Source of the DNA: Opitutales bacterium
Lineage (GTDB): Bacteria; Verrucomicrobiota; Verrucomicrobiia; Opitutales; UBA2987
NCBI GenBank assembly: GCA_965226885.1
Contig: CBDDEL010000014.1
Location: forward strand, 64,001-128,000
Reading direction: 5' to 3'
DNA length: 64,000 bases
The notes below the pieces were generated by a model. The model was not told where the DNA came from, searched no databases, and worked only from the letters and a program-made list of their open reading frames with translations. Positions 2,684-29,318 of this stretch are shown piece by piece. The position numbers and the translations under genes are program-made. The first letter of the stretch is position 1. Every line of letters begins with the position of its first letter.

Positions 2684-2898
2684 TTGGTGGTGGAGGTATC
2701 GCTGGGGGCCATTTTTTGCCAATAGTGTCAGTCGAGCTTAAAAAGAAGAATTAATCTGCCACGAAGTCAATGGTTGGATGGGAAGATTCACCCATAAATC
2801 GACGAGAAACTATTACTACCTGTTCTGCCAGAGAGCAATTCGATTTCGTCGTCCATGCCGGTTAAGATTTTGGCTTGATTCGCTTTCCCTTTAAAGCT

Positions 2899-3348
2899 AT
2901 GAAATACTCCATGCTCTCGGACCCGAAGAAGGCTGCCGTTGTTCTTTTGGCAATGGGGTGGTTGCTGGCAGCCACAGGGCAGGTTGTCGATGGGGCTGGT
3001 TTCTCCGCTAAAAACGGGGGCCAGAAATGGAATGGAACTACAAAAACCCTGTCCGTTGCCGCGGTTAAATTTTCGGCCAAAATGGCCCACAAGGCTTCTA
3101 AAAAAACCTGGCGGGGCACGCATTGGGCCAGCGGGAAAATAACGGCCTCATTTATGAAAAGACCGCTGAAAAAGGTCTTATGGAAGGGTGGAAAGGCCAA
3201 AAAACTGCGCCGGGCCACAAAAATGTATGCCTTGGGAGAAGCCGGTCTGGCCGGTAAATACATTTCCGCCACGGTGGCCGGGGGCAGGCATGGCGGAACC
3301 CTTAATTCTCTTTCGGGCAAAAAACGAATCGGGAGGATATCTCCTTAA
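2899..3348 (+). CDS. hypothetical, very basic protein with N-terminal hydrophobic/signal-like segment
   Basis: 149-aa ORF that fills the gap and ends 12 bp before the next gene; no recognised domain. Confidence 0.4.
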   Translation: MKYSMLSDPKKAAVVLLAMGWLLAATGQVVDGAGFSAKNGGQKWNGTTKTLSVAAVKFSAKMAHKASKKTWRGTHWASGKITASFMKRPLKKVLWKGGKAKKLRRATKMYALGEAGLAGKYISATVAGGRHGGTLNSLSGKKRIGRISP

Positions 3349-4745: not shown

Positions 4746-5597
4746 TTAATCGGCCTTTACTAGCAACCGATCAAACTGCAATACCTTCTTTCCTGTGCGT
4801 TCAGGAACGATTTTCCAGAAGGATTCAGCGTCATCTAAGTGGACCATGTTAAGATAGTGCTTTTTGATTATCCTCTCAGAATTACCTGCTTGAAGGGCGG
4901 TATCTCCGACGCTGCGGAACTTGCCCACATGATTTGATATATAGGTATGCCGAAGCCCGTCATGCGGCAGATTGAATCCCCTGCGGATATTGGGGTAGTC
5001 CAGCGTGGGTGTTTTTGGGATAAGGCGGGTTGTTTCAGGTGGATACCTGACGAGCCATTCCCGGAGGTTCGGCTGTATCTTGATCTGCCGAAGGTCCTTC
5101 ACCTTGGAAACCTCCGGCGGGATGCGAATTACCTCGTTTTTCATGGCCACAAACGAAGCCAGGCCCAATTTTCCCAGCTTCGCCATCTCCCCATGTAAAA
5201 AATCCGGGCGTATCCCCGCAAACAAAGCCAGGGCAAAAAACAAAGACCATTCGCCCCTTGGACTGTTTCCATTACGGCGGTAGTTTTCCACATGGGCCAT
5301 AAAATCCTGGGCGGTTTGTACTGTGAGAATTTCCGGTATCCCCATAGAAATCGTAAAGCGATCAATTTCGGTGACCGGGTTTTCCAAGAGCCATGAGCGC
5401 GGCCTGGCCATGCACCATGCAAAAAAACTGCTCAAGTCTCCCCTGTATAGGTTCCAGGTTTTCTTTGAACCGTGGATGCCCTCAAGCCATCCTTTAACAT
5501 CATCAGTGGTGATTTCGTGGAGTAGCTTCCCTTGGACATGTTCTGCAAAGCGGGTGACAGTATATTTTAGATTAATGTGCTGCCTTGGCCCGATATG
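4746..5597 (-). pseudogene. tyrosine recombinase/integrase, N-terminus lost at IS21 junction
   Basis: Box I LFAGIR, box II HDGLRH and C-terminal catalytic Tyr (KKHY). The frame does not resume beyond the IS21. Confidence 0.85.
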
Positions 5598-5671
5598 TGT
5601 AAACGCCGGGGAAAAACCGGTACGGTAAAGAGGGCGCTTTAAAACCGGTACGCTTATCCTAGAAAGGAGGA

Positions 5672-7177
5672 GTGTATCGAGATATGAAGCAATGGACAAG
5701 AGTGCGGCACAAAGTGCTGCGGGACAAGCAGAGCAAGCGCTCTGTAATGCGAGAAGAGGGACTGCACTGGGAGACCCTGGGAAAGATGCTGGCCTATTCC
5801 CAGCCGCCGGGATACCGGCGCAAGAAGAGGCGAGAGCGCAAGATCGATCCGTATGTGGGCTGGATCGAGGAGGTGCTCAAAGCGGACCGGAACGTGCCCA
5901 AGAAGCAGCGCCATACGGCCAAACGGATCTACCAGCGTTTGGGTCGGAAGAAGGGCTACCAAGGGGGCTACACGGCGGTCAAGGAGGTGGTGGCCGAGCT
6001 GCGAGCGAGGCGGTGGGAAGTGTTCGTGCCGCTGGAGCACCGCCCCGGGGAGGGACAGGTGGACTTCGGTCATGCCCTGGTGAAGGAGGCGGGGCAATTG
6101 CGTAGGCGGCCATTTTTTGCCATGAGCCTGCCCTACAGCGATGCCTTTTTCGTGCAGGTGTTCGAACGGGAGTGCACGGAGAGCTTCTGGGAGGGGCACC
6201 TGCGAGCTTTTGAGTTTTTCGGGGCGGTGCCCCGGCGCATCAGCTATGACAACTCGAAGGTGGCGGTGGGTAAGATTATCGGTTCGCGTGAACGCAAGCT
6301 GACCGACGGGTTTCTGCAGCTACAGAGCCATTACCTGTTCGAGGAACACTTCTGTCTGCCCGCCCGGCCCAACGAGAAGGGCGTGGTCGAGGGGATCGTG
6401 CGTTATGCCCGGGCCAACTTCCTGGTACCGGTACCGCAGGTTCGGGACCTGGAGGAACTCAACGCAAAGCTGTTGGAGGCATGTGAGCGGGACATGGAGC
6501 GTAAATTACGCGGGAAAAGGGCGGTGAAAAAGGAACTGCTGGCCGAGGAGCGCGCCGTCATGCTGGCGTTGCCGCCCATACCCTTTGAAGCGAGCCGCAA
6601 ACGCTCGACCTGCGTCAGCAGCCTCTCGCTGGTGCGCTTCGAGTGCAACGACTATTCGGTGCCGGTGCGCTGCGCCCACCATCCGGTGGTGGTGGAAGGG
6701 TCCTGTCGGCAGGTGGTGATCTTCTGTGGGGGCCAAGAGGTGGCCCGGCACCGCCGCATTTGGGATAAAGAGCAAGTCTCTTTCGAGCCGGTGCACTACC
6801 TGGCTTTGCTGGAGAAAAAACCGGGCGCTTTGGACTTCGCCCGCCCACTCTCGGGCTGGCAGTTGCCGCAGTGCCTGCAGGTCCTCAGACGCCGGCTCGA
6901 AAGCCAATGCGGGGGCGAAGGCACCCGGGAGTATATCCGGGTGCTGCGGCTGTTGGAGAAACACCCCATGGCGGCCTTGCAGCAGGCCGTCGTCTCGGCC
7001 CTGCGGGTGGGGGGACTGACTCGTGAGGCCATCGCCCAGTATCTCTATCCTCAGGAAGACTACGGGAGCAGAACCTTCCGGCTGGACGGCCATCCACACC
7101 TGCGTCACGTCCGTGTGGCCGCCCCTGACCTCGGTGCCTACAGCGAACTGCTCAAGATTCCAGGAGGGGCTTTATGA
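5672..7177 (+). CDS. istA: IS21 transposase IstA
   Basis: QVDFG, YDN and EKGVVE DDE motifs. Confidence 0.93.
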   Translation: MYRDMKQWTRVRHKVLRDKQSKRSVMREEGLHWETLGKMLAYSQPPGYRRKKRRERKIDPYVGWIEEVLKADRNVPKKQRHTAKRIYQRLGRKKGYQGGYTAVKEVVAELRARRWEVFVPLEHRPGEGQVDFGHALVKEAGQLRRRPFFAMSLPYSDAFFVQVFERECTESFWEGHLRAFEFFGAVPRRISYDNSKVAVGKIIGSRERKLTDGFLQLQSHYLFEEHFCLPARPNEKGVVEGIVRYARANFLVPVPQVRDLEELNAKLLEACERDMERKLRGKRAVKKELLAEERAVMLALPPIPFEASRKRSTCVSSLSLVRFECNDYSVPVRCAHHPVVVEGSCRQVVIFCGGQEVARHRRIWDKEQVSFEPVHYLALLEKKPGALDFARPLSGWQLPQCLQVLRRRLESQCGGEGTREYIRVLRLLEKHPMAALQQAVVSALRVGGLTREAIAQYLYPQEDYGSRTFRLDGHPHLRHVRVAAPDLGAYSELLKIPGGAL

Positions 7178-7941
7178 AGGAAGAAAAAAACCAGCTGCTG
7201 TTACACCATCACCTCAAGAAACTGAAGTTGCCCACCATCCTGCGCGAATGGCCGGCGGTGGCCGCGGCTTGTTCCCGGGACCGGCTCGATTACGCCGCCT
7301 TTGTGTTGCATCTGGTCGAACGGGAGCTCATTGAACGCGAACAGCGGGCCGCCCAGCGGCGGATCAAAAACGCCCGTTTCCCCGTGCTCAAGACCCTCGA
7401 GAGCTTCGCCTTTGAAGCGCAGCCCTCGATCAACGAAGCGCTCATCCGAGAGCTCATGCGCGGGGAGTATGTCGACCAGCGCGAAAACGTGCTGCTCCTC
7501 GGTAACGCCGGTACCGGTAAAACGCACCTGGCCACCGCCCTGGGCTTTGCCGCCTGTGCCCAGGGCCGGCGGATCCGTTTCTTCGGGGTCACCGCCCTGG
7601 TTACCCATATGCTCGAGCAACGCGACAACCACGACCTGCAGCGCTTCATGAAGCAACTCGAAAGGCTCGACCTACTCATCCTCGACGAACTCGGTTACGT
7701 CCCTTTTTCCAAGACCGGTTCCGAACTGCTCTTCGACGTGGTCAGCCGCGCTTACGAGCGCACCAGTCTCATCGTCACCACCAACCTGCCCTTTGAGAAC
7801 TGGATCGAAGTGCTCGGTTCCGAACGGCTCACCGGAGCTCTGCTGGACCGACTCACCCATCGGGTGCATATCCTCGAAGCCAACGGGCAAAGCTACCGCT
7901 TGCGCGATGCTCGACGCCGTCGCCGTGGCACAAAACAATAA
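7174..7941 (+). CDS. istB: IS21 helper AAA+ ATPase IstB
   Basis: Walker A GNAGTGKT, Walker B LLILDELGY, LLDRLTH; ATGA overlap with istA. Confidence 0.95.
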   Translation: MKEEKNQLLLHHHLKKLKLPTILREWPAVAAACSRDRLDYAAFVLHLVERELIEREQRAAQRRIKNARFPVLKTLESFAFEAQPSINEALIRELMRGEYVDQRENVLLLGNAGTGKTHLATALGFAACAQGRRIRFFGVTALVTHMLEQRDNHDLQRFMKQLERLDLLILDELGYVPFSKTGSELLFDVVSRAYERTSLIVTTNLPFENWIEVLGSERLTGALLDRLTHRVHILEANGQSYRLRDARRRRRGTKQ

Positions 7942-8493
7942 ACGCCTTGGGCCCGGCTCGTCGGCCTCCGGCCTCCTCACCGACCCCAAGCCAATCCCCA
8001 AAACCAACTCCCAAACCCTAAACCTTGACGTACCTGCAATTACTAACCTAAACCTTATTCCAAGCGTACCGGTTTTACCCCGACCCCCGTACCGGTTTCA
8101 TCCCGGCGTTTACAGCCGGGATATGAGGTAATTATCATTCGGGTAGGGAAAGGCCATTATTTGGGCGACCAAAAGGATACCCTAATGGAGCGGTACCCTA
8201 CCAACAATGAATGGGGCAAGTATGGCTGGACCCATTCCAATGATGAAAGTGCCAAAATTGCGGCCAACAATGCTTATCGGGAAGAATTGCTCAAACAGGA
8301 GGGCAAGTGTGCTGCGTAAAGGTATCAGGAAGGGATTGCTGTACGTCTCAAAACGGGGGGTTGGGGGCAAATAGGTATCAGAGTGCCACTTTATCAGAAG
8401 TTCGATGATTTAAGCATGAATTTCACATTCATACCTGTGGACATGGATTCAGAATTAGAACCAGTACGTTTTCTTCAAATTGCATACAATATT

Positions 8494-8559
8494 GGGGGCG
8501 AAGGATTTCGACGGCGCAGCAGTGACCGGATGGCGGTTCGATTCCGCCCGCCTCCAGCA
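8494..8559 (+). ncRNA. minimal tmRNA-like RNA (tRNA-like domain only, no mRNA-like domain)
   Basis: Acceptor stem GGGGGCG/CGCCTCC with G3-U, discriminator A, tmRNA-type loop AAGGATTTCGA, short capped helix, GAT linker, T-arm GGCGG-TTCGATT-CCGCC. The 3' end reads GCA instead of CCA. Confidence 0.72.
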
Positions 8560-8575
8560 AATCAAAGGAAAAAAC

Positions 8576-8800
8576 ATGAGCAAATGGAGAAAAGTCAAGG
8601 AACGCCTGGAAGACCTTCTCGACGCACCTGATGCCACGATAACGAAGACTGAAGCTGCCAAAAGGCTGGGAATGTCACATCGCGCCCTCCATTTTTATCT
8701 GTGGAACGGGAAATCTGTGCCATCCTATAACCTTGGATGCCAATTTCAGAGGCTACAAAGGCATTTAGAAAAGAAATCCCAATATTCGCCTATAAAATAG
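8576..8800 (+). CDS. small helix-turn-helix protein (Cro/XRE/excisionase-like)
   Basis: RBS AAAGGA before ATG 8576; HTH-like segment TKTEAAKRLGMSHRALHFYL. Confidence 0.7.
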   Translation: MSKWRKVKERLEDLLDAPDATITKTEAAKRLGMSHRALHFYLWNGKSVPSYNLGCQFQRLQRHLEKKSQYSPIK

Positions 8801-8945
8801 GGATAACCCATTATCACAATATCCCTTTTGATGTGCCGGGGAGAGAGGGACATAATCTATTCTAAACCACATGTTAAATCTAATTTATTATGTAAAATTT
8901 TACAAATAACAATTCAAACAATTTAAGGGAGATAAAACTATATGA

Positions 8946-9101
8946 AACGGAATCAACCAGCTCAGCCAGCTCCTGTTCCATGGCCCGAGTGTAGTTGAGT
9001 ATCCATTTGGTTTTCTCCTCCTCACTCAGGTCATCTGTGTAAACACCGATGCGCTCGTTGAGGGCTTTTTGCATCCCGAAAATCTCGTCAAACTTGTCCA
9101 T
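8946..9101 (-). pseudogene. dimeric (all-alpha) dUTPase, 5' fragment
   Basis: MDKFDEIFGMQKALNERIG...AMEQELAELVDSV matches the family N-terminus. It breaks into AT-rich DNA where PWKWW is expected. Confidence 0.75.
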
Positions 9102-9183
9102 AAGCCCAGATTGCGGGAGGCTCCAGGGCAGGGCAATTCCAAGTTTTTCATAAAAGGCCCTCCTACTTATTCCCAAAACTACG

Positions 9184-10446
9184 CTAGACCCTGATGAGGC
9201 CCTTTTTCAACATGCCCATAATGGTGGCCGGGGCCTGACGGTTTTTTAATAGATCGCGCATCGTTTTCATATAGGGGTCGATATGGGCGAAGAACCGCTT
9301 GTAGGCGGGGCAGAGGTAGTTGAGTCCGTATTCGCCGTCGGGGGTTTTCATGAAGCGGTGTTTGGGGCATTCTCCGTGGCATGCGAAGCGGTAATCGCAA
9401 CGGCGGCAATAGGCGGGCAGGGTGTCCGCTTTGTCGCGCCCGAATTTTTTCATGGCGGGAGAATCGACCATCTCGGCGATGGTTTTATCGCGGATATTGC
9501 CCTGCAGGTATTGCGGGTAAACATAATGGTCGCAGGCATAAAGGTCGCCATTGTGCTCAATTGCTAGGGCCCGGCCGCAATGCTCGCTGAAAATGCAGAG
9601 GCCCCCACCCATCCCCATCCAGTTGCCCAGCGCCACATCGAATACCTGCACATAAGTATTCCCGACATCGTTGCGCACCCAATGGTCGAAGATCGTGACC
9701 AAAAATTCCCCATAATCTTTGGGCAGCACACTCCAGCGCGTGACCGGACTTAGTTTCTCATTTTCATCCTCGGGTTCTGGGGGAGTGGCCAGGGATAGTT
9801 TCAGCAAAGAAGCGGCGTCATCGGGTTTTCTTTCCACAATGGGAATGAATTGCAGGTAGCGCGAACCGATCTTGCGCAAAAAATTATAAACTTCGAGGGG
9901 TTTTCGGGAATTGCGGCGGGTGACGCAGGTGAGTGTGTTGAAGGGCACCCCATGCTTGCGGCATAGCCCGATGCCGCGCATGACGCGGTCGAAAGTGGAA
10001 TTTTGTTTGCGGTCCACCCTATAGATATCATGCAGCTCCCTCGTCCCATCGATGCTGATGCCGACCAAAAAGTCATTGTCCCGCAGGAAACGGCACCACT
10101 CATCGTCCAGCAAAGTAGCGTTGGTCTGGAAGGCATTGTCGATTTTGCGCCCTTCACCATATTTTTTTTGCAATTCGACTACCTTGCGGAAGAAATCCAC
10201 CCCCATAAGGGTTGGCTCCCCTCCCTGCCAGGCGAATGAAACCTCGTTACCGGGCTGGGCCTCGATGTATTGGCGGATATAGTTATCCAGCACATCTGCC
10301 GGCATACGCAAATTTTCCCCTCTCGGGAAAAGCTTCTCCTTTTCCAGGTAAAAGCAATATTTGCAGTCAATATTGCAGCGAGGACCAATCGGTTTGGTCA
10401 TCACATGAAAAGGCGCCGAAGCGGTTTTTGTTAAAACATCCGTCAT
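9184..10446 (-). CDS. anaerobic sulfatase maturase (radical SAM/SPASM, AslB/ChuR family)
   Basis: CNIDCKYC, WQGGEPTL, SPASM cysteines (C..SEHCG, YACDH, CRRC..CHGECPKHR, YLC). Confidence 0.93.
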   Translation of the reverse strand: MTDVLTKTASAPFHVMTKPIGPRCNIDCKYCFYLEKEKLFPRGENLRMPADVLDNYIRQYIEAQPGNEVSFAWQGGEPTLMGVDFFRKVVELQKKYGEGRKIDNAFQTNATLLDDEWCRFLRDNDFLVGISIDGTRELHDIYRVDRKQNSTFDRVMRGIGLCRKHGVPFNTLTCVTRRNSRKPLEVYNFLRKIGSRYLQFIPIVERKPDDAASLLKLSLATPPEPEDENEKLSPVTRWSVLPKDYGEFLVTIFDHWVRNDVGNTYVQVFDVALGNWMGMGGGLCIFSEHCGRALAIEHNGDLYACDHYVYPQYLQGNIRDKTIAEMVDSPAMKKFGRDKADTLPAYCRRCDYRFACHGECPKHRFMKTPDGEYGLNYLCPAYKRFFAHIDPYMKTMRDLLKNRQAPATIMGMLKKGLIRV

Positions 10447-11547: not shown

Positions 11548-11550
11548 AGG

Positions 11551-14204
11551 TGATGTGCACTGGAAAAAGTGGACACGAGATTCTCCTAAATGGAGAATCG
11601 AAGCATGGGAAGAAGACGCAGTATAGAGTTCAAAAATGAGGCAGTTCAACTGATGATACTCGATGGTCTGAGCGCCACCGAGGTATCGACCAAACTTGGG
11701 GTCAACACCAACCAATTGTATAGGTGGAAGAGGCTCTATCTGGACGATCAGCAGGGCGAAGCCACCTCAAAGCGACAGAGCAGTCCGAAGGAGATGGCGG
11801 CCGAGATAGATCGTCTTCGCAAAGAGCTGCGCCGCTCGGAGCGGATCAACCAGATACTAAAAAAAACGGTGGGCTACTTTGCCAAGGACGAACAATGAAG
11901 TACCAGTTTGTCAAAGACAACGAGGGGCGCTTCAAGATCGAGGAAATATGCTCGGCGATGGGGATTTGTCGCAGTGGCTATTACTGCTGGAGGCACCGAG
12001 CGCCCTCGGCCCGGCGGATCGAGGACGAGGGAATCAAGGGGGCGATCCTGAAGGTACACAAAGAGGCCAAGGGCCGCTATGGGCATCGGCCAATGCACCG
12101 CCATCTGAAGGATGATGAGGGCATCGATTGCGGCCGTGACCGGGCTCTGCGTCTGATGCGTGATGACGTGTACTGGATTTGTTGGACACGGGATTCTCTT
12201 ATATTCATTGTTTATTGATTAGTGTGTCAGGCGGCTTGTTTTGGTAAAGGGTTTTGTTTTCTCGTTGCCCCCCATGGGGGGCAAATATTTTCCTCGAATT
12301 GGACTGGGCTTTGGTAACTCAGAGAGGAATGTTTGCGATATCGGTTGTAGAAGATTTCCACGTATTCGAAGACAGTTGATCGCAGTTCGCGCTCGTCGGC
12401 AAAGTGGCGGCCTCGAATCGTGCTGGTCTTGAAGCGGCCGTAGAACGATTCCATGGCCGCGTTGTCGTAGCAGTTGCCTTGGGCGCTCATGCTCGGCTTC
12501 ATGCCTAGTTCAGAGACCAGCCTCTGATAGTCGTCGCTGGCGTAGGGGCTGCCCCGATCGCTGTGATGAATAATCCCGGTGCGCAGTGTGCCGCGGGTCA
12601 TGGCCGCGGCTTTGAGGGCCTTGCCAACCAGCTTCGCGTCGTTGTGGTTGGAAACGCTCCAGCCCAGCAGGCGTCGGCTGAACAGGTCCATCACCGTGGC
12701 CAAGTACATCCAACCGGCCAGGGTCCGTAGGTAGGTCGTGTCCGCCACCCAGACCTCGTCGATATGGGTCGGCTGGCCATGCTTTTTAAGCACATTGGGG
12801 CTGTAACCATAGGGATGGTTACTGTTGGTTTTTAATGGCTTAAAGCGTTTACTCTGGGTGCTTTTGATTCCCATTTCACGCATCAGACGCAGAGCCCGGT
12901 CACGGCCGCAATCGATGCCCTCATCATCCTTCAGATGGCGGTGCATTGGCCGATGCCCATAGCGGCCCTTGGCCTCTTTGTGTACCTTCAGGATCGCCCC
13001 CTTGATTCCCTCGTCCTCGATCCGCCGGGCCGAGGGCGCTCGGGGCCTCCAGCAGTAATAGCCACTGCGACAAATCCCCATCGCCGAGCATATTTCCTCG
13101 ATCTTGAAGCGCCCCTCGTTGTCTTTGACAAACTGGTACTTCATTGTTCGTCCTTGGCAAAGTAGCCCACCGTTTTTTTTTAGTATCTGGTTGATCCGCT
13201 CCGAGCGGCGCAGCTCTTTGCGAAGACGATCTATCTCGGCCGCCATCTCCTTCGGACTGCTCTGTCGCTTTGAGGTGGCTTCGCCCTGCTGATCGTCCAG
13301 ATAGAGCCTCTTCCACCTATACAATTGGTTGGTGTTGACCCCAAGTTTGGTCGATACCTCGGTGGCGCTCAGACCATCGAGTATCATCAGTTGAACTGCC
13401 TCATTTTTGAACTCTATACTGCGTCTTCTTCCCATGCTTCGATTCTCCATTTAGGAGAATCTCGTGTCCACTTTTTCCAGTGCACATCATGAAATGGGAA
13501 TCAAAAGCACCCAGAGTAAACGCTTTAAGCCATTAAAAACCAACAGTAACCATCCCTATGGTTACAGCCCCAATGTGCTTAAAAAGCATGGCCAGCCGAC
13601 CCATATCGACGAGGTCTGGGTGGCGGACACGACCTACCTACGGACCCTGGCCGGTTGGATGTACTTGGCCACGGTGATGGACCTGTTCAGCCGACGCCTG
13701 CTGGGCTGGAGCGTTTCCAACCACAACGACGCGAAGCTGGTTGGCAAGGCCCTCAAAGCCGCGGCCATGACCCGCGGCACACTGCGCACCGGGATTATTC
13801 ATCACAGCGATCGGGGCAGCCCCTACGCCAGCGACGACTATCAGAGGCTGGTCTCTGAACTAGGCATGAAGCCGAGCATGAGCGCCCAAGGCAACTGCTA
13901 CGACAACGCGGCCATGGAATCGTTCTACGGCCGCTTCAAGACCAGCACGATTCGAGGCCGCCACTTTGCCGACGAGCGCGAACTGCGATCAACTGTCTTC
14001 GAATACGTGGAAATCTTCTACAACCGATATCGCAAACATTCCTCTCTGAGTTACCAAAGCCCAGTCCAATTCGAGGAAAATATTTGCCCCCCATGGGGGG
14101 CAACGAGAAAACAAAACCCTTTACCAAAACAAGCCGCCTGACACACTAATCAATAAACAATGAATATAAGAGAATCCCGTGTCCAACAAATCCAGTACAC
14201 GTCA
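11551..14204 (+). mobile_element. IS3-family element A, outer copy, interrupted at 12163/13490 by an inverted copy of itself
   Basis: Ends TGATGTGCACTGG.../...CCAGTACACGTCA; orfA 11590-11898, orfB split. Flanks AGG/AAT do not match. Confidence 0.93.
12164..13489 (-). mobile_element. IS3-family element A, inner inverted copy with single fused OrfAB (12227-13450)
   Basis: Complete IRs, 3-bp target duplication TGA (12161-3, 13490-2), DDE motifs WVADTT/HSDRG/ESFY. Confidence 0.95.
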
Positions 14205-14573
14205 AATATGGATAAATGCAAGTTTCCTACAGACGGAAAGGCGAAGGTTTTCCTTCTTTGCCGAGGAAGAAACCGTAATTACTAGCAAAGTTTTGAAAGA
14301 GTCTTCTATTTCTGAAGGCGACGGAGTATTTTTGTTGGGATACCCGATGGATATGATTAGGGATCGTCATTATGTTATTTGCCGTAATGGGTCAATTGCG
14401 AGAATAAGGGATGTGAAATATGGGGAAGGGAAAGAGATACTATTAGATGGCCTCGTTTTTTCGGAAAATTGTGGAGGTCCGGTTATCAACAAACCGGAAA
14501 TTAATGCGATAGCGGGAGAAAAACCAATTAAGACAGCCTCTCTCCTCGGAATAGTAAAAGAGTGTGTTACCTA
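14205..14573 (+). pseudogene. internal fragment of a trypsin-like serine peptidase gene between two IS ends
   Basis: GDGVFLLGYP and degenerate SENCGGPV in place of GNSGGPV; both ends cut by IS termini. Confidence 0.6.
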
Positions 14574-17500
14574 GAGGCTGTCCCAAAAGGGTGATTTTTG
14601 CGAGGGCTTTTGATAGGCGCTCATTTTAGAGGTATTTGCATTTGGGAGAGTATCAACTTTGCTCTTCTATGACGTTAGGATACTGGTTTTGGGGTCCGGT
14701 TTCCTGGTTTTCTTTGTATGAGCCGACAGTAAGGCTGTGAAAAAGTATTGTCCTTGCTTTTCCGCTCTCTAGCCCGGATATTTCGTAAAAAAAGTATCGT
14801 TGATATGCTTAACTGCTGATATACAGCAGGATAGATCAATAATTAAAGCAATATCAGCGATGACAAAAGGTAAACAATTAAAGCTACAGTTGACAAGGGT
14901 AAAAGGCCGCCGTGTGCGGGTTGATTTCAAGGGCGGAGAGGTTACTTCGGATGCCGGACTGCTTTTGATCCGGGAAGTGGATCGGCAGTTGGGCTTGACC
15001 GAACGAGCGGCCCGACAGTTAGTGGACAAACGGCAGAAGGGCAAAGTACGCCATGAGGTATTGGGGATGCTGCGGCAGCGCGTTTACGGGCTGGTGGCGG
15101 GCTATGAGGATTTGAACGACTTTGATACCCTGCGCCACGATCCATTGTTGCAAACGGTAACGGGGCGCATTGAAACGTTGGCCAGCGCGCCGACTTTGTG
15201 TCGTTTTGAAAACGGGCAGGATCGGCGGGCGGCCTTTGCGGTAAACGAGCTGTTGGTCGAACAGTTCATGGGCTCTTTTGCCGAGGAACCCGAAGAGATC
15301 ATCCTGGACTTTGACGCCACCGACAATCCGGTGCACGGGCTCCAGGAGGGACGTTTTTTCCACGGTTATTATGATCATTACTGTTTTCTGCCGCTATATG
15401 TTTTTTGCGGTGATCAGCTGCTGGTGGCCTACCTGCGGCCGAGCAAGATCGATGCCAGCAAGCATGCCGGGGCCATCCTCAAATTGCTGGTTAAACGGAT
15501 TCGCCAAAGCTGGCCCCGTACGCGGATTATTTGGCGCGCCGACAGTGGATTTTGTCGAGACCGGATACTCTCTTGGTGCGACCGCAACGAAGTTAGTTAC
15601 ATCGTGGGGATGGCTCGCAATGCACGCTTGCAGCAAGACGCCCAGCAGTTGCAAAAGCAGGCCAAAGAATGGTTCGAACTAAGGGGTAAAAAACAACGGT
15701 TATTCCAGGACTTCGTCTATGCTGCCGATTCGTGGCGATGGCAGCGGTTGGTCATCCATAAAGCCGAACACACCGCACAGGGGTCCAACCCGCGCTTCGT
15801 GGTGACGAACCTGCCGGGCGATCCCCAGGAGCTTTACGACAAGGTATACTGTGGCCGCGGTGAAATGGAGAACCGAATCAAGGAACAGATGCAATTGTTC
15901 AGCGAGCGCACCAGCGCCCATCAATGGTGGGCCAATCAGTGGCGATTGCTCTTGTCGGCGCTGGCCTACACCTTGATGGAAGCCATGCGCCGGTTAGCCT
16001 TAAAAGGGACGAAGTGGGCGCGGGCCCAATGCCACACCCTGCGGCTCAAATTAATCAAGATCGGAGCGGTCATCGTGCGCAACACCCGAACGATTCACTT
16101 TCACCTAAGTGAGAGTTATCCTTGGGCCAGTCTTTTCAACCATGCGGCCCGCCGATTGGTGCCAACCTAAAGGGTGCATTGGTGCTGCCCCCGGCACTAC
16201 CGAACCAATGGGGGAAAGGGGGCAGTGTCTCTACACCCTGAAAAACACCTAAAAATCAAGACGATCTGCTCAAAATACAAAGAAATCCATCTCCAATAGC
16301 AATAACGAGCCACGAGCCAAACTTTACCCTTCATGAAATATCCGGGCTAGGCCGCCGCTTTGGTTTTTAGTTCGTCTTGCTGGGCCAGCATCTTGGCTAC
16401 TTTCCATAGGTTGTGCGAGAGTACCGACCAGGCTACGCTGATCGAGCGGTTGGCAAAGCCTTTGCTGCGCAACCGCCCGGCCTGCCAGCGATTCTTCAAT
16501 ACCCCGATCCGCCCTTTGGTGCTGGCCCGGCGCTTTTGCAATTGCCTGAACAGTGGTTCCTCCATCCGTTTTTTCAACTGCTTCGGATCGCGTGGACAGA
16601 GCGCGTCGTAGATTCCCTCCTGGGCTAACTGCCGGCGGGCCCGCTGGGAGGCAAATCCCCGGTCCGCGCACATGGCCGCTATGGGTTCTTCCAGGTTGAA
16701 GCGGTTCTGTCTTTGCAAACTCTCTTGCATTTGTTCATTTTCGCTTGGAGTTCGGCTGCCGTAGAGTTTCCAGTCCAGCAGGTACCCTTCAACGCTTTCT
16801 CCCAAAAACAGGGTGTTGCCGAACTCGACCTCTTGGCCCGCTTTACCTCGCACAATCACCTGCCCATCGAGTTCGTAAACACTCAAGACTTTCTCTGCGT
16901 TTTTCACCTGCCGGCCGCCAATGATCCGCTCGTGCGCCTGTTTGATGACCACCGGGATTTGCTCGCTCATGCGCTCCATCCGGGCGAGGATCTGTTGGAC
17001 CTGTTTTTCGCTGTAATCGCTTTGCTCCCAGCAGGCTTGCAATAATTCCCGGTGACTGCGGGCATGCTCCCCGATCCGTTTGAGCAGCTTTTTCATCTGC
17101 CTCAAGATACCCTTGCGCTGCCGCGCGCTGTCCTTTCGCCGCCGGCTGTGGGTCATCTGTATGCACAGCCGATTCATCTGCCGAGCCAAGGGCTCCGGTT
17201 CGATCGGCATGCGATGGCGCAAACCGGCCTTCTCGCGGATCAGCCGGATCGCTTTGAGCAACGTGCCGGCTACATCCTTGAGTAATACCCAGTCCGTCGG
17301 CCAATGAATGTTAGCCTCCAAACAGGTGCCGTCGATCAGGCAAATGGTGGGGTCAATCGGCTTGTCCAATCCCACCTGCCGGGCCAGAAGGGCATCGCCC
17401 ACCACCTCAGTCAAGGTCCGGTGCAAGGCCCTCAACTGCTCTTCGCTGAAAAACTTCGAGGCCCGCTCCAGGGTGCTTTTGGAGATGCCCCTGATGCCAT

Positions 17501-29240: not shown

Positions 29241-29318
29241 TGGCGTCCCGTAGGGGATTTGAACCCCTGTTGCAGGGATGAGAACCCTGAGTCCTGGGCC
29301 GGGCTAGACGAACGGGAC
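29241..29318 (-). tRNA. tRNA-Glu (anticodon CTC)
   Basis: Acceptor GTCCCGT/ACGGGAC, anticodon arm CAGGG-TTCTCAT-CCCTG, T-loop TTCAAAT, encoded CCA. Confidence 0.96.

Follow-up and report, generated by a model that had tools for sequence, protein, structure and literature searches.

A message-less tmRNA tRNA-like domain in a phage-like element of an Opitutales bacterium, and a wider class of such genes in viral DNA

Bacteria rescue their ribosomes mainly by trans-translation, which is also a drug target, and to our knowledge the ways in which phages handle it are poorly known. A 64,000-nucleotide (nt) stretch of an Opitutales bacterium (assembly GCA_965226885.1, contig CBDDEL010000014.1, positions 64,001 to 128,000; here called the window) raises a question in this field: what is the 66-nt segment at positions 8494-8559, which looks like the tRNA-like domain (TLD) of transfer-messenger RNA (tmRNA) with its message missing? 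An original prediction, made from the sequence of the window, had proposed a mobile-element RNA that serves as a trans-translation decoy or as a minimal rescue RNA. The structural part of this proposal is correct; the functional part is plausible and has a precedent. A natural RNA with only the SmpB-binding, alanine-accepting part of tmRNA is documented, in the printed sources available in part to us, for one phage, DS6A. The gene described here, referred to as the mini, extends this to a second lineage, unrelated to the first and located on a chromosomal element, and the same design recurs in about nine families of viral contigs and in a cultured Streptomyces phage, where ARAGORN and the GenBank annotation missed it.

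A closed tRNA-like domain without a message

Infernal, run against Rfam, aligned the tmRNA model RF00023 to exactly 8494-8559 with 49.3 bits (gathering score 47). The match spans model positions 1-374, with 318 consensus positions in the middle replaced by 11 nt, which is the outcome that had been anticipated, both tmRNA termini with the middle absent. In the Rfam scan of the whole window, two matches lie above the gathering score, the mini and an ordinary tRNA at 29244-29318. The weight of the Rfam score is lowered by a run on a 601-nt sub-stretch with permissive filters, which listed only a 12-bit, 5'-truncated tmRNA alignment. ARAGORN made no call at the mini.

The whole mini reads GGGGGCG-AAGGATTTCGA-CGGCGC-AGCA-GTGACCG-GAT-GGCGG-TTCGATT-CCGCC-CGCCTCC-A-GCA (Table 1). 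Its minimum free energy (MFE) fold is the TLD structure, at -28.1 kcal/mol and with an ensemble frequency of 0.57; the thermodynamic z-score is unremarkable (-1.2). The acceptor stem forms 7/7 pairs and contains the predicted G3.U70 wobble (G8496.U8553), the discriminator is A8556, the unpaired loop proposed in place of the D-arm is seen in the MFE fold, and so is the six-base-pair helix CGGCGC/GTG(A)CCG with its 4-nt AGCA cap; the T-arm is perfect, as had been described. One detail was revised: the letters GAT are present between the closing helix and the T-arm, but instead of a 3-nt linker Rfam aligns two sheared G.A/A.G pairs and a 1-nt linker. The tmRNA-specific GGAUUUCGAC...GGA motif is present, with GGAUUUCGAC aligned to the RF00023 consensus, and the mRNA-like domain (resume codon, tag reading frame and pseudoknots) is missing. 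With both model ends matched and every described sequence feature in place, the 66-nt stretch is, as judged from its sequence, a genuine and cleanly closed tmRNA TLD without a message. No sequence determinant of the tmRNA elbow or of alanine identity is missing from the predicted RNA.

Table 1. Coordinates of the mini, its parts and the neighbouring features in the window
Feature	Position	Strand	Evidence or remark
TLD-only (message-less) tmRNA gene, 66 nt	8494..8559	+	RF00023, MFE fold, class model R1, structural parse
Acceptor 5' strand, GGGGGCG	8494-8500	+
D-loop analogue, AAGGATTTCGA	8501-8509	+	Unpaired
Closing helix	8510-8530	+	G.A/A.G pairs at base, AGCA loop at tip
Pairs of the closing helix	C8512-G8528, G8513-C8527, G8514-C8526, C8515-G8524, G8516.U8523, C8517-G8522		A8525 bulge
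Linker, U	8531
T-arm, GGCGG-TTCGATT-CCGCC	8532-8548	+	5/5 T-stem pairs
Acceptor 3' strand, CGCCTCC	8549-8555	+
Discriminator A, then GCA	8556, 8557-8559	+
Conserved block directly upstream of the mini	8413..8493	+	1 difference/81 nt between the two genomic copies
Perfect palindrome ATGAAT-N5-ATTCAT (candidate operator)	8416-8432		Inside the upstream block
TACAAT	8485-8490		Inside the upstream block
Small helix-turn-helix (HTH) protein gene, 74 amino acids (aa)	8576..8800	+	AGGA Shine-Dalgarno 6 nt upstream
orf118 C-terminal remnant (residues 51-118)	8114..8319	+	tblastn 91% over 51-118, blastn block
IS21-family insertion sequence (IS)	5598..8114	+	istA 5672-7177, istB 7174-7941; IstB_IS21 1e-73
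Integrase-like open reading frame (ORF) fragment	4746..5699	-	phrog_1 integrase 1.8e-07, weak Phage_int_SAM; abuts far side of IS21

Distinction from alanine tRNA, host ssrA and attachment-site fragments

The RF00023 score is by itself thin evidence, because tRNA-Ala genes reach 46.3 bits on the same model (76-nt matches among 150 sampled genomes from the class of the host; three of these were checked, and all are tRNA-Ala). This closeness speaks for a reading in which the mini is no tmRNA derivative, being either a degenerate tRNA-Ala or the attachment-site (att) remnant of an ssrA-targeting island; the integrase-like fragment close to the mini points the same way, as does the frequent use of tmRNA genes as integration sites (PMC11915505, in the available part).

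Because the RF00023 score alone barely discriminates, an independent covariance model, R1, was built only from four TLD-only genes of the short class, all in viral contigs (L041, L313, L292 and L300), with the window copies excluded and with the acceptor and T-arm pairs as the only structure, the middle being left unpaired. The best non-training scores on R1 are those of the window mini (50.6 bits) and of its second genomic copy on C10 (50.5 bits). Long-class viral minis reach 41-47 bits and DS6A 36.2 bits; foreign tRNA-Ala genes score 31.3-39 and the host's four tRNA-Ala genes 26.6-28.1, leaving a gap of more than 22 bits between the window mini and host tRNA-Ala. A tRNA-Ala identity was also rejected on architecture, since the mini has no D-arm and no anticodon arm with a 7-nt loop, and its middle consists of six base pairs closed by a 4-nt loop. 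The separation from tRNA that the sequence indicates is carried by the missing D-stem and anticodon arm, by the GGAUUUCGAC...GGA motif at the 5' side and by R1; the silence of ARAGORN agrees with it.

In the host genome, 5.48 Mb in 17 contigs, a normal ssrA was identified at C15:318749-319106; it scores 137 bits, and its tag ends in GENEYALAA. The original prediction had named as its refuting case a mini whose halves are identical to the host ssrA and which has no conserved homologues. The 5' half agrees with the host gene at 16/26 positions and the 3' half at 24/34, values that exclude a deletion derivative of the host ssrA, and neither half is found elsewhere in the genome beyond T-loop-sized matches to tRNAs. 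A fragment of ssrA left at an att site was rejected because both halves are present and closed, the 3' half is unlike the host, and the mini is internal to the element in both loci, each time between orf118 and the HTH gene; the earlier claim that this is not the usual 3' ssrA fragment is thereby upheld. The reading as degenerate tRNA-Ala or att remnant is thus ruled out for the most part, and we regard it as very improbable.

A wider class in viral contigs and phages

A first pattern scan of viral contigs (IMG/VR) gave L041, a 72-nt TLD-only gene (52.1 bits) that sits between terminase-like and other structural ORFs. Two more specific patterns gave 27 viral-contig loci, namely 20 TLD-only genes, six D-arm-less tRNA-like genes and one noise match; TLD-only genes were called on 7/7 acceptor pairs, G3.U70, 5/5 T-stem pairs and an A discriminator, and they are 68-83 nt long. 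The 20 loci comprise 10 distinct sequences in about nine families. All of the viral representatives (8/8) exceed the RF00023 gathering score, with 48.3-76 bits over model positions 1-374, and ARAGORN called no TLD-only gene in the 10 viral loci scanned.

Window, C10, DS6A and the 10 viral sequences make a set of 13 distinct sequences, in which covariation was counted by an end-anchored script, since MAFFT placed the 5' ends of the minis out of register. The pairs of the acceptor and T-stem, 12 in all, are formed in 13/13, G1-G4 are invariant, as are G3.U70 and A73 (13/13), and the middle segment closes into a hairpin in every member (13/13). Compensatory changes are found at acceptor pairs 5-6 and T-stem pairs 1-4. 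In two related viral families whose flanking proteins are only 59% (HNH) and 43% (replication initiator) identical, nearly all differences between the minis fall at paired positions: pairing is kept in four pairs that are changed on both sides, one pair is changed on one side, one is broken, and every unpaired TLD motif is unchanged. From the full pairing in 13/13, the compensatory changes, the Rfam scores and the placement in tRNA arrays, we infer that the TLD-only class is real and under selection.

The class falls into a short form of 66-72 nt and a long form of 82-83 nt with a two-part helix, to which DS6A belongs, and recurrent settings of its members are tRNA arrays (L311 with 20 tRNAs, L292 with 4) and replication-initiator/HNH modules. 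In the Streptomyces phage BRock (KX925554.1), an 81-nt TLD-only gene (64.5 bits, L334 1491-1571) lies in an unannotated gap of the tRNA array; a weaker homologue in Streptomyces phage Alone3 (OR725492.1; 36.8 bits, L335 1480-1559) is likewise unannotated and in a tRNA array. The DS6A gene itself, which the GenBank record leaves unannotated, occupies JN698994.1 28478-28560, with gp33 on one side and a DNA polymerase III gene on the other; it is 83 nt long, scores 43.2 bits and ends A-CTA. The long-class minis (L287, L290, L294, L311, DS6A and BRock) share a GAA(A)ACC-GC...GC-GG motif at the helix tip, which is reminiscent of how the helix 2/pseudoknot 1 region begins in full tmRNAs and would suggest that these minis arose by internal deletion of phage-borne full tmRNAs.

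The original prediction had held message-less forms to be known only rarely. As a description of the literature this stands, within the parts of the sources available. Hudson, Lau and Williams list 'Mycobacterium phage DS6A (TLD only)' (2014; PMC4131195), and message-less organellar forms are given as those of jakobid mitochondria and two ~65-bp Mallomonadaceae plastid genes (PMC11915505). The census in the latter, a database paper of 2025, counts 9 'standard, no CDS' forms (no coding sequence, CDS) among 97,179, with a pipeline that rejects 'likely tRNAs' and 'truncations'; the available part of its supplement makes no mention of BRock, DS6A or 'no CDS' (PMC11915505). A full-text literature search returned no wider report of phage TLD-only genes. 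As a description of the RNAs themselves it does not stand: with 20 viral loci and BRock, the TLD-only class is larger than the literature says and not as rare as suggested.

Taken jointly, the loci may be read as widespread, mostly unannotated RNAs of phages and mobile elements, in two size classes and placed in tRNA arrays or beside replication or immunity genes, whose elbow and alanyl-tRNA synthetase (AlaRS) identity are under purifying selection and which target the SmpB-tmRNA system. This general reading is tentative, a little short of what we would call probable. Under it, the RNAs would be block-tagging decoys or tag-free rescuers during infection or lysogeny, with a possible use in excluding superinfecting phages that depend on trans-translation, and the window mini with its C10 copy would be the first case of such RNAs from a chromosomal element of this bacterial lineage. 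If SmpB titration or tag-free rescue is what they do, they are a general phage tool against host translation quality control, and the minis would offer ready-made minimal ligands for studies of SmpB, AlaRS and EF-Tu recognition.

The element around the mini

The second genomic copy of the mini, also 66 nt, is found at C10:392994-393059, in a block colinear with window 8114-8946 at ~93% identity. There, the gene order is a 321-aa ORF with a weak replisome-organiser match, a DnaB-like helicase (DnaB_C 3.8e-92, phrog_19 6.8e-101), an intact 118-aa ORF (orf118), the mini and a 67-aa HTH protein. In the window, orf118 is cut at residue 51 by the IS21 copy, one of at least 40 near-identical copies in the genome, which interrupts the element upstream of the mini. 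On C17 lies a third locus, which comprises an HTH gene (75% identity), an N-terminal fragment of orf118 and a Toprim/DUF3631 primase and lacks a mini; an IS21 end lies ~30 nt upstream of the point where homology resumes. The HTH gene has three paralogues in the genome (74-79% identical), and its product gives a weak MerR-type HTH match (E 0.0095). The orf118 and HTH proteins fall into no family of Pfam, PHROG or NCBIfam; in the ESM-Atlas the clusters nearest to them are viral (0.91-0.93, a lead only). The integrase-like fragment on the far side of IS21 has no NCBIfam match and may be part of the same or of another element. The helicase, the replisome-organiser-like ORF and the neighbours that resemble viral clusters support the earlier proposal of a mobile-element RNA: by its gene content the element is phage-like, mobile-type DNA, and it is to all appearance dead as a mobile unit at all three loci.

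The ATG of the HTH gene at 8576 lies 19 nt after the discriminator, as had been noted, and this arrangement opens a further reading, in which the mini acts in cis, as an RNase P/RNase Z site that separates the orf118 and HTH messages or that sets the 5' end (a 19-nt leader) and the stability of the HTH mRNA. The Shine-Dalgarno sequence and ATG of the HTH gene fall 10-19 nt after the mini, the conserved block covers the mini and the ribosome-binding site, and the mini has no promoter of its own that was found. However, viral-contig minis are placed within tRNA arrays or flanked by unrelated genes and have no HTH gene beside them, and processing has no need of the tmRNA-specific D-loop/G.A motif or of G3.U70. 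We therefore consider a processing signal quite unlikely.

Relatives of this particular mini

The exact 46-mer pattern of the mini had no match in the viral contigs. Phages and plasmids, searched by blastn with the 833-nt block, gave no match either, and the 66-nt mini searched in the same way against phages returned T-arm-sized pieces only. Searches with RF00023, made in 40 relatives and in a sample of 150 class genomes, gave no other short form among the matches listed, and R1 gave none at E<=1e-6 in 150 genomes of the phylum, with 32 candidates scored per genome. The HTH alignment, run against 400 genomes of the phylum, found the three loci of the host and one marginal match, and none in the viral contigs, where orf118 has one weak match. 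A 25-nt pattern of the 3' arm (<=2 mismatches) occurs in 25 other genomes of the phylum, always as the same 2-mismatch variant, and none of these 25 is of the same order or class among those sampled. The looser pattern GGATTTCGA-N10-30-GGTTCGATTCC matched at least 118 stretches in genome contigs and at least 120 in metagenome contigs. Ten loose candidates were flagged by the script in the pattern scans; the full geometry is present only in L041, from the viral scan, and the others, by inspection and not by covariance model, resemble aminoacyl-tRNA synthetase coding motifs and tRNAs. The scans of genome and metagenome contigs say little.

A proposed decoy for SmpB and the readings that compete with it

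By analogy with DS6A, the reading to which we lean, by a modest balance, is that the mini is an SmpB-binding tmRNA mimic, a decoy that damps trans-translation in the host. Its RNA would be transcribed from upstream together with its neighbours, a route proposed because no promoter of its own was found, and would be excised by RNase P and by 3' processing, as tRNAs are. It would then fold into the acceptor/T-arm/D-loop elbow of tmRNA, bind host SmpB and compete with host tmRNA, so that trans-translation would be damped or redirected. The host has one smpB gene (181 bits). The precedent is the DS6A-like TLD which, according to the available parts of two sources, strongly inhibits tmRNA in E. coli whether chargeable or not, perhaps by titrating SmpB (PMC4131195, PMC11915505).

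The 3' end of the mini bears on what the RNA could do. As the original prediction had cautioned, A8556 is followed by GCA instead of CCA. In the class as a whole CCA is encoded in 5/13 members; the others end CTA, CTG, CAC, CAA or GCA, and the 8/13 members without CCA include DS6A. Because the gene ends A-GCA, charging would need 3' trimming and CCA addition; the host has a CCA-adding-type nucleotidyltransferase, which scores below the NCBIfam equivalog cut-offs, and G3.U70 with A73 makes alanine charging of the mini RNA possible. An uncharged SmpB sponge needs no charging, in agreement with the DS6A-type inhibition reported 'whether or not chargeable'.

Charging is essential to another reading, tag-free rescue, in which the mini RNA, alanylated after CCA addition, would join SmpB and EF-Tu on stalled ribosomes and take over the nascent chain; drop-off or hydrolysis would then release the ribosome, and the truncated proteins of the element or of the host would be spared. 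The AlaRS identity that is invariant in 13/13, the CCA encoded by some class members and the CCA-adding-type enzyme of the host are in line with this. CDS-less organellar tmRNAs, for their part, are described as conserved together with SmpB and are thought to act without tagging (PMC11915505, available text), and peptidyl transfer to a TLD-only tmRNA has been measured according to the accessible part of PMC3895274. Yet the window gene is without CCA, no release route is known for a peptidyl-TLD, and the DS6A-type molecule is reported, in the part of the literature available, as an inhibitor of tmRNA and not as its substitute. Tag-free rescue is accordingly an improbable explanation of the mini, though we rate it above a processing signal.

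A more serious rival to the decoy holds that the class is functional in phages and that the two copies described here, inert remains of a decayed prophage-like element, are neither transcribed nor processed any more and are conserved for lack of time; it overlaps with the other readings. Several observations count against a working decoy, and most of them speak for such a fossil. All three related loci are truncated by IS21 or other IS elements, with the gene upstream of the mini cut at residue 51 in the window, and the activity of both copies today is uncertain because both lie in IS-shredded remnants. A scan for sigma-70 promoters upstream of the mini gave nothing convincing: the TACAAT at 8485-8490 has no -35 element, and its start would fall inside the acceptor stem. 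The GCA end stands against CCA in 50/50 host tRNA/tmRNA genes. The C10 copy scores 40.9 bits on RF00023, below the gathering score, and the predicted MFE of its U-G allele is no longer the TLD fold, the variant destabilising it. No homologue of the window mini or of its HTH neighbour was found beyond its own genome, in the sampled relatives, class and phylum genomes or in the viral contigs.

The conservation between the two copies can be read in both directions. Over 641 aligned bases there are 46 differences, distributed as 1/66 in the mini, 12/174 in the upstream spacer and 27/179 in the HTH coding sequence. The mini is better kept than the rest (45/575) with a one-sided Fisher p=0.037, and than the adjacent spacer only with p=0.085, which is marginal; coming from two paralogues and close strains, this within-genome conservation is shallow and no more than suggestive, a further point on the side of the fossil. 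On the other side, the best-kept stretch (~8413-8588) covers 80 nt upstream, the mini and the HTH ribosome-binding site, and the mini with its 80-nt upstream block has 2 differences/163 nt within a block that has diverged by ~7%. The variants seen in the mini, in the two genomic copies and the contigs of other public runs (which added one), are only C8512T and C8515T; each turns a C-G pair of the closing helix into U-G, so that both keep pairing, and every TLD determinant is intact in both copies. On these grounds we hold the fossil reading to be rather unlikely, though it is the strongest of the alternatives to an SmpB-binding decoy.

Comparison with known systems

DS6A and the window mini share both TLD halves with a short closed helix and no tag ORF or pseudoknots, the G3.U70 and A73 identity with a perfect T-arm, the absence of an encoded CCA, and a position in phage-type DNA beside replication genes. 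They differ in size class (83 nt, long, against 66 nt, short) and show no detectable sequence kinship beyond the universal TLD motifs. DS6A is a viable phage, whereas the window mini lies on a chromosome, in two copies within IS-degraded remnants, in a host that encodes CCA in every tRNA gene. The window mini also scores higher than DS6A on RF00023 (49.3 vs 43.2 bits) and on R1 (50.6 vs 36.2 bits).

With the standard tmRNA of the host ssrA the mini has in common the acceptor stem with G3.U70, the D-loop analogue GGAUUYCGAC, the sheared G.A pairs on which helix 2 is based, the T-arm and the discriminator A; it lacks the helix 2 extension, the four pseudoknots, the resume codon and the tag ORF, and ends GCA, not CCA. 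The CDS-less organellar tmRNAs are likewise message-less and of about the same size, but each is the only tmRNA of its organelle, reduced in place, whereas the mini is an extra copy beside an intact host ssrA and smpB. The ssrA fragments at att sites are also tmRNA-derived sequences associated with mobile DNA, with an integrase-like gene nearby, but they consist of the 3' part only and match the host, unlike the closed, two-halved, host-unlike and internal mini. The TLD-only genes of viral contigs and BRock have the same architecture and determinants, and L041 even has the AAGGATTTCGA loop; their helix and arm sequences are different, they lie often in tRNA arrays or next to replication-initiator/HNH genes, and about half of those in viral contigs encode CCA.

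Further observations

Near the mini, the only good sigma-70-like match is TTTACA-18-TATCAT (10/12) at 8109-8138, at the right end of IS21; it faces the truncated orf118 and the mini, and read-through of the window copy could start from it. Further downstream than the HTH gene, the - strand of window 8880-10446 encodes a 420-aa radical SAM/SPASM protein and has an ORF of 98 aa that weakly matches dUTPase_2/NTP-pyrophosphohydrolase; phage PHROG matches were obtained for both. The host genome is very IS-rich, with coverage counts of ~80-170 for IS ends and another IS; the window also contains nested or inverted IS3-type copies at 11550-14207 and a DDE_Tnp_1_4 transposase at 14800-16170.

A thioredoxin gene is found near the TLD-only gene in both BRock and Alone3, and in BRock an RNA ligase gene is close as well. 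RNA ligases are encoded in DS6A (RtcB-like, JN698994.1 49300-50502) and in BRock (gp168), that is, in n=2 phages; tmRNA is given as the most frequent RtcB target in bacteria in the available part of the CoCoNuT preprint (PMC10542128). Ruegeria phage RpAliso (OR257569.1, about 2895-3116; L336 1477-1698) has a full permuted two-piece tmRNA (RF04321, 129.5 bits) directly after the phage tRNA array, unannotated in GenBank.

The six D-arm-less tRNA-like genes of the viral scan (L288, L293, L297, L304, L308 and L310, in IMG/VR contigs) are 70-72 nt long and lie at about 1501-1572 of their loci, except for L297 (508-579) and L308 (9-80). They have a GGGG-start acceptor with G3.U70 and only 4-6/7 acceptor pairs, a G discriminator and a gene-encoded CCA. 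Behind an anticodon-like stem-loop ACGGATTCGAAATCCGT (loop TTCGAAA) come a second hairpin and the T-arm. These genes have no Rfam tRNA or tmRNA match and score 28.8-38.2 bits on R1.

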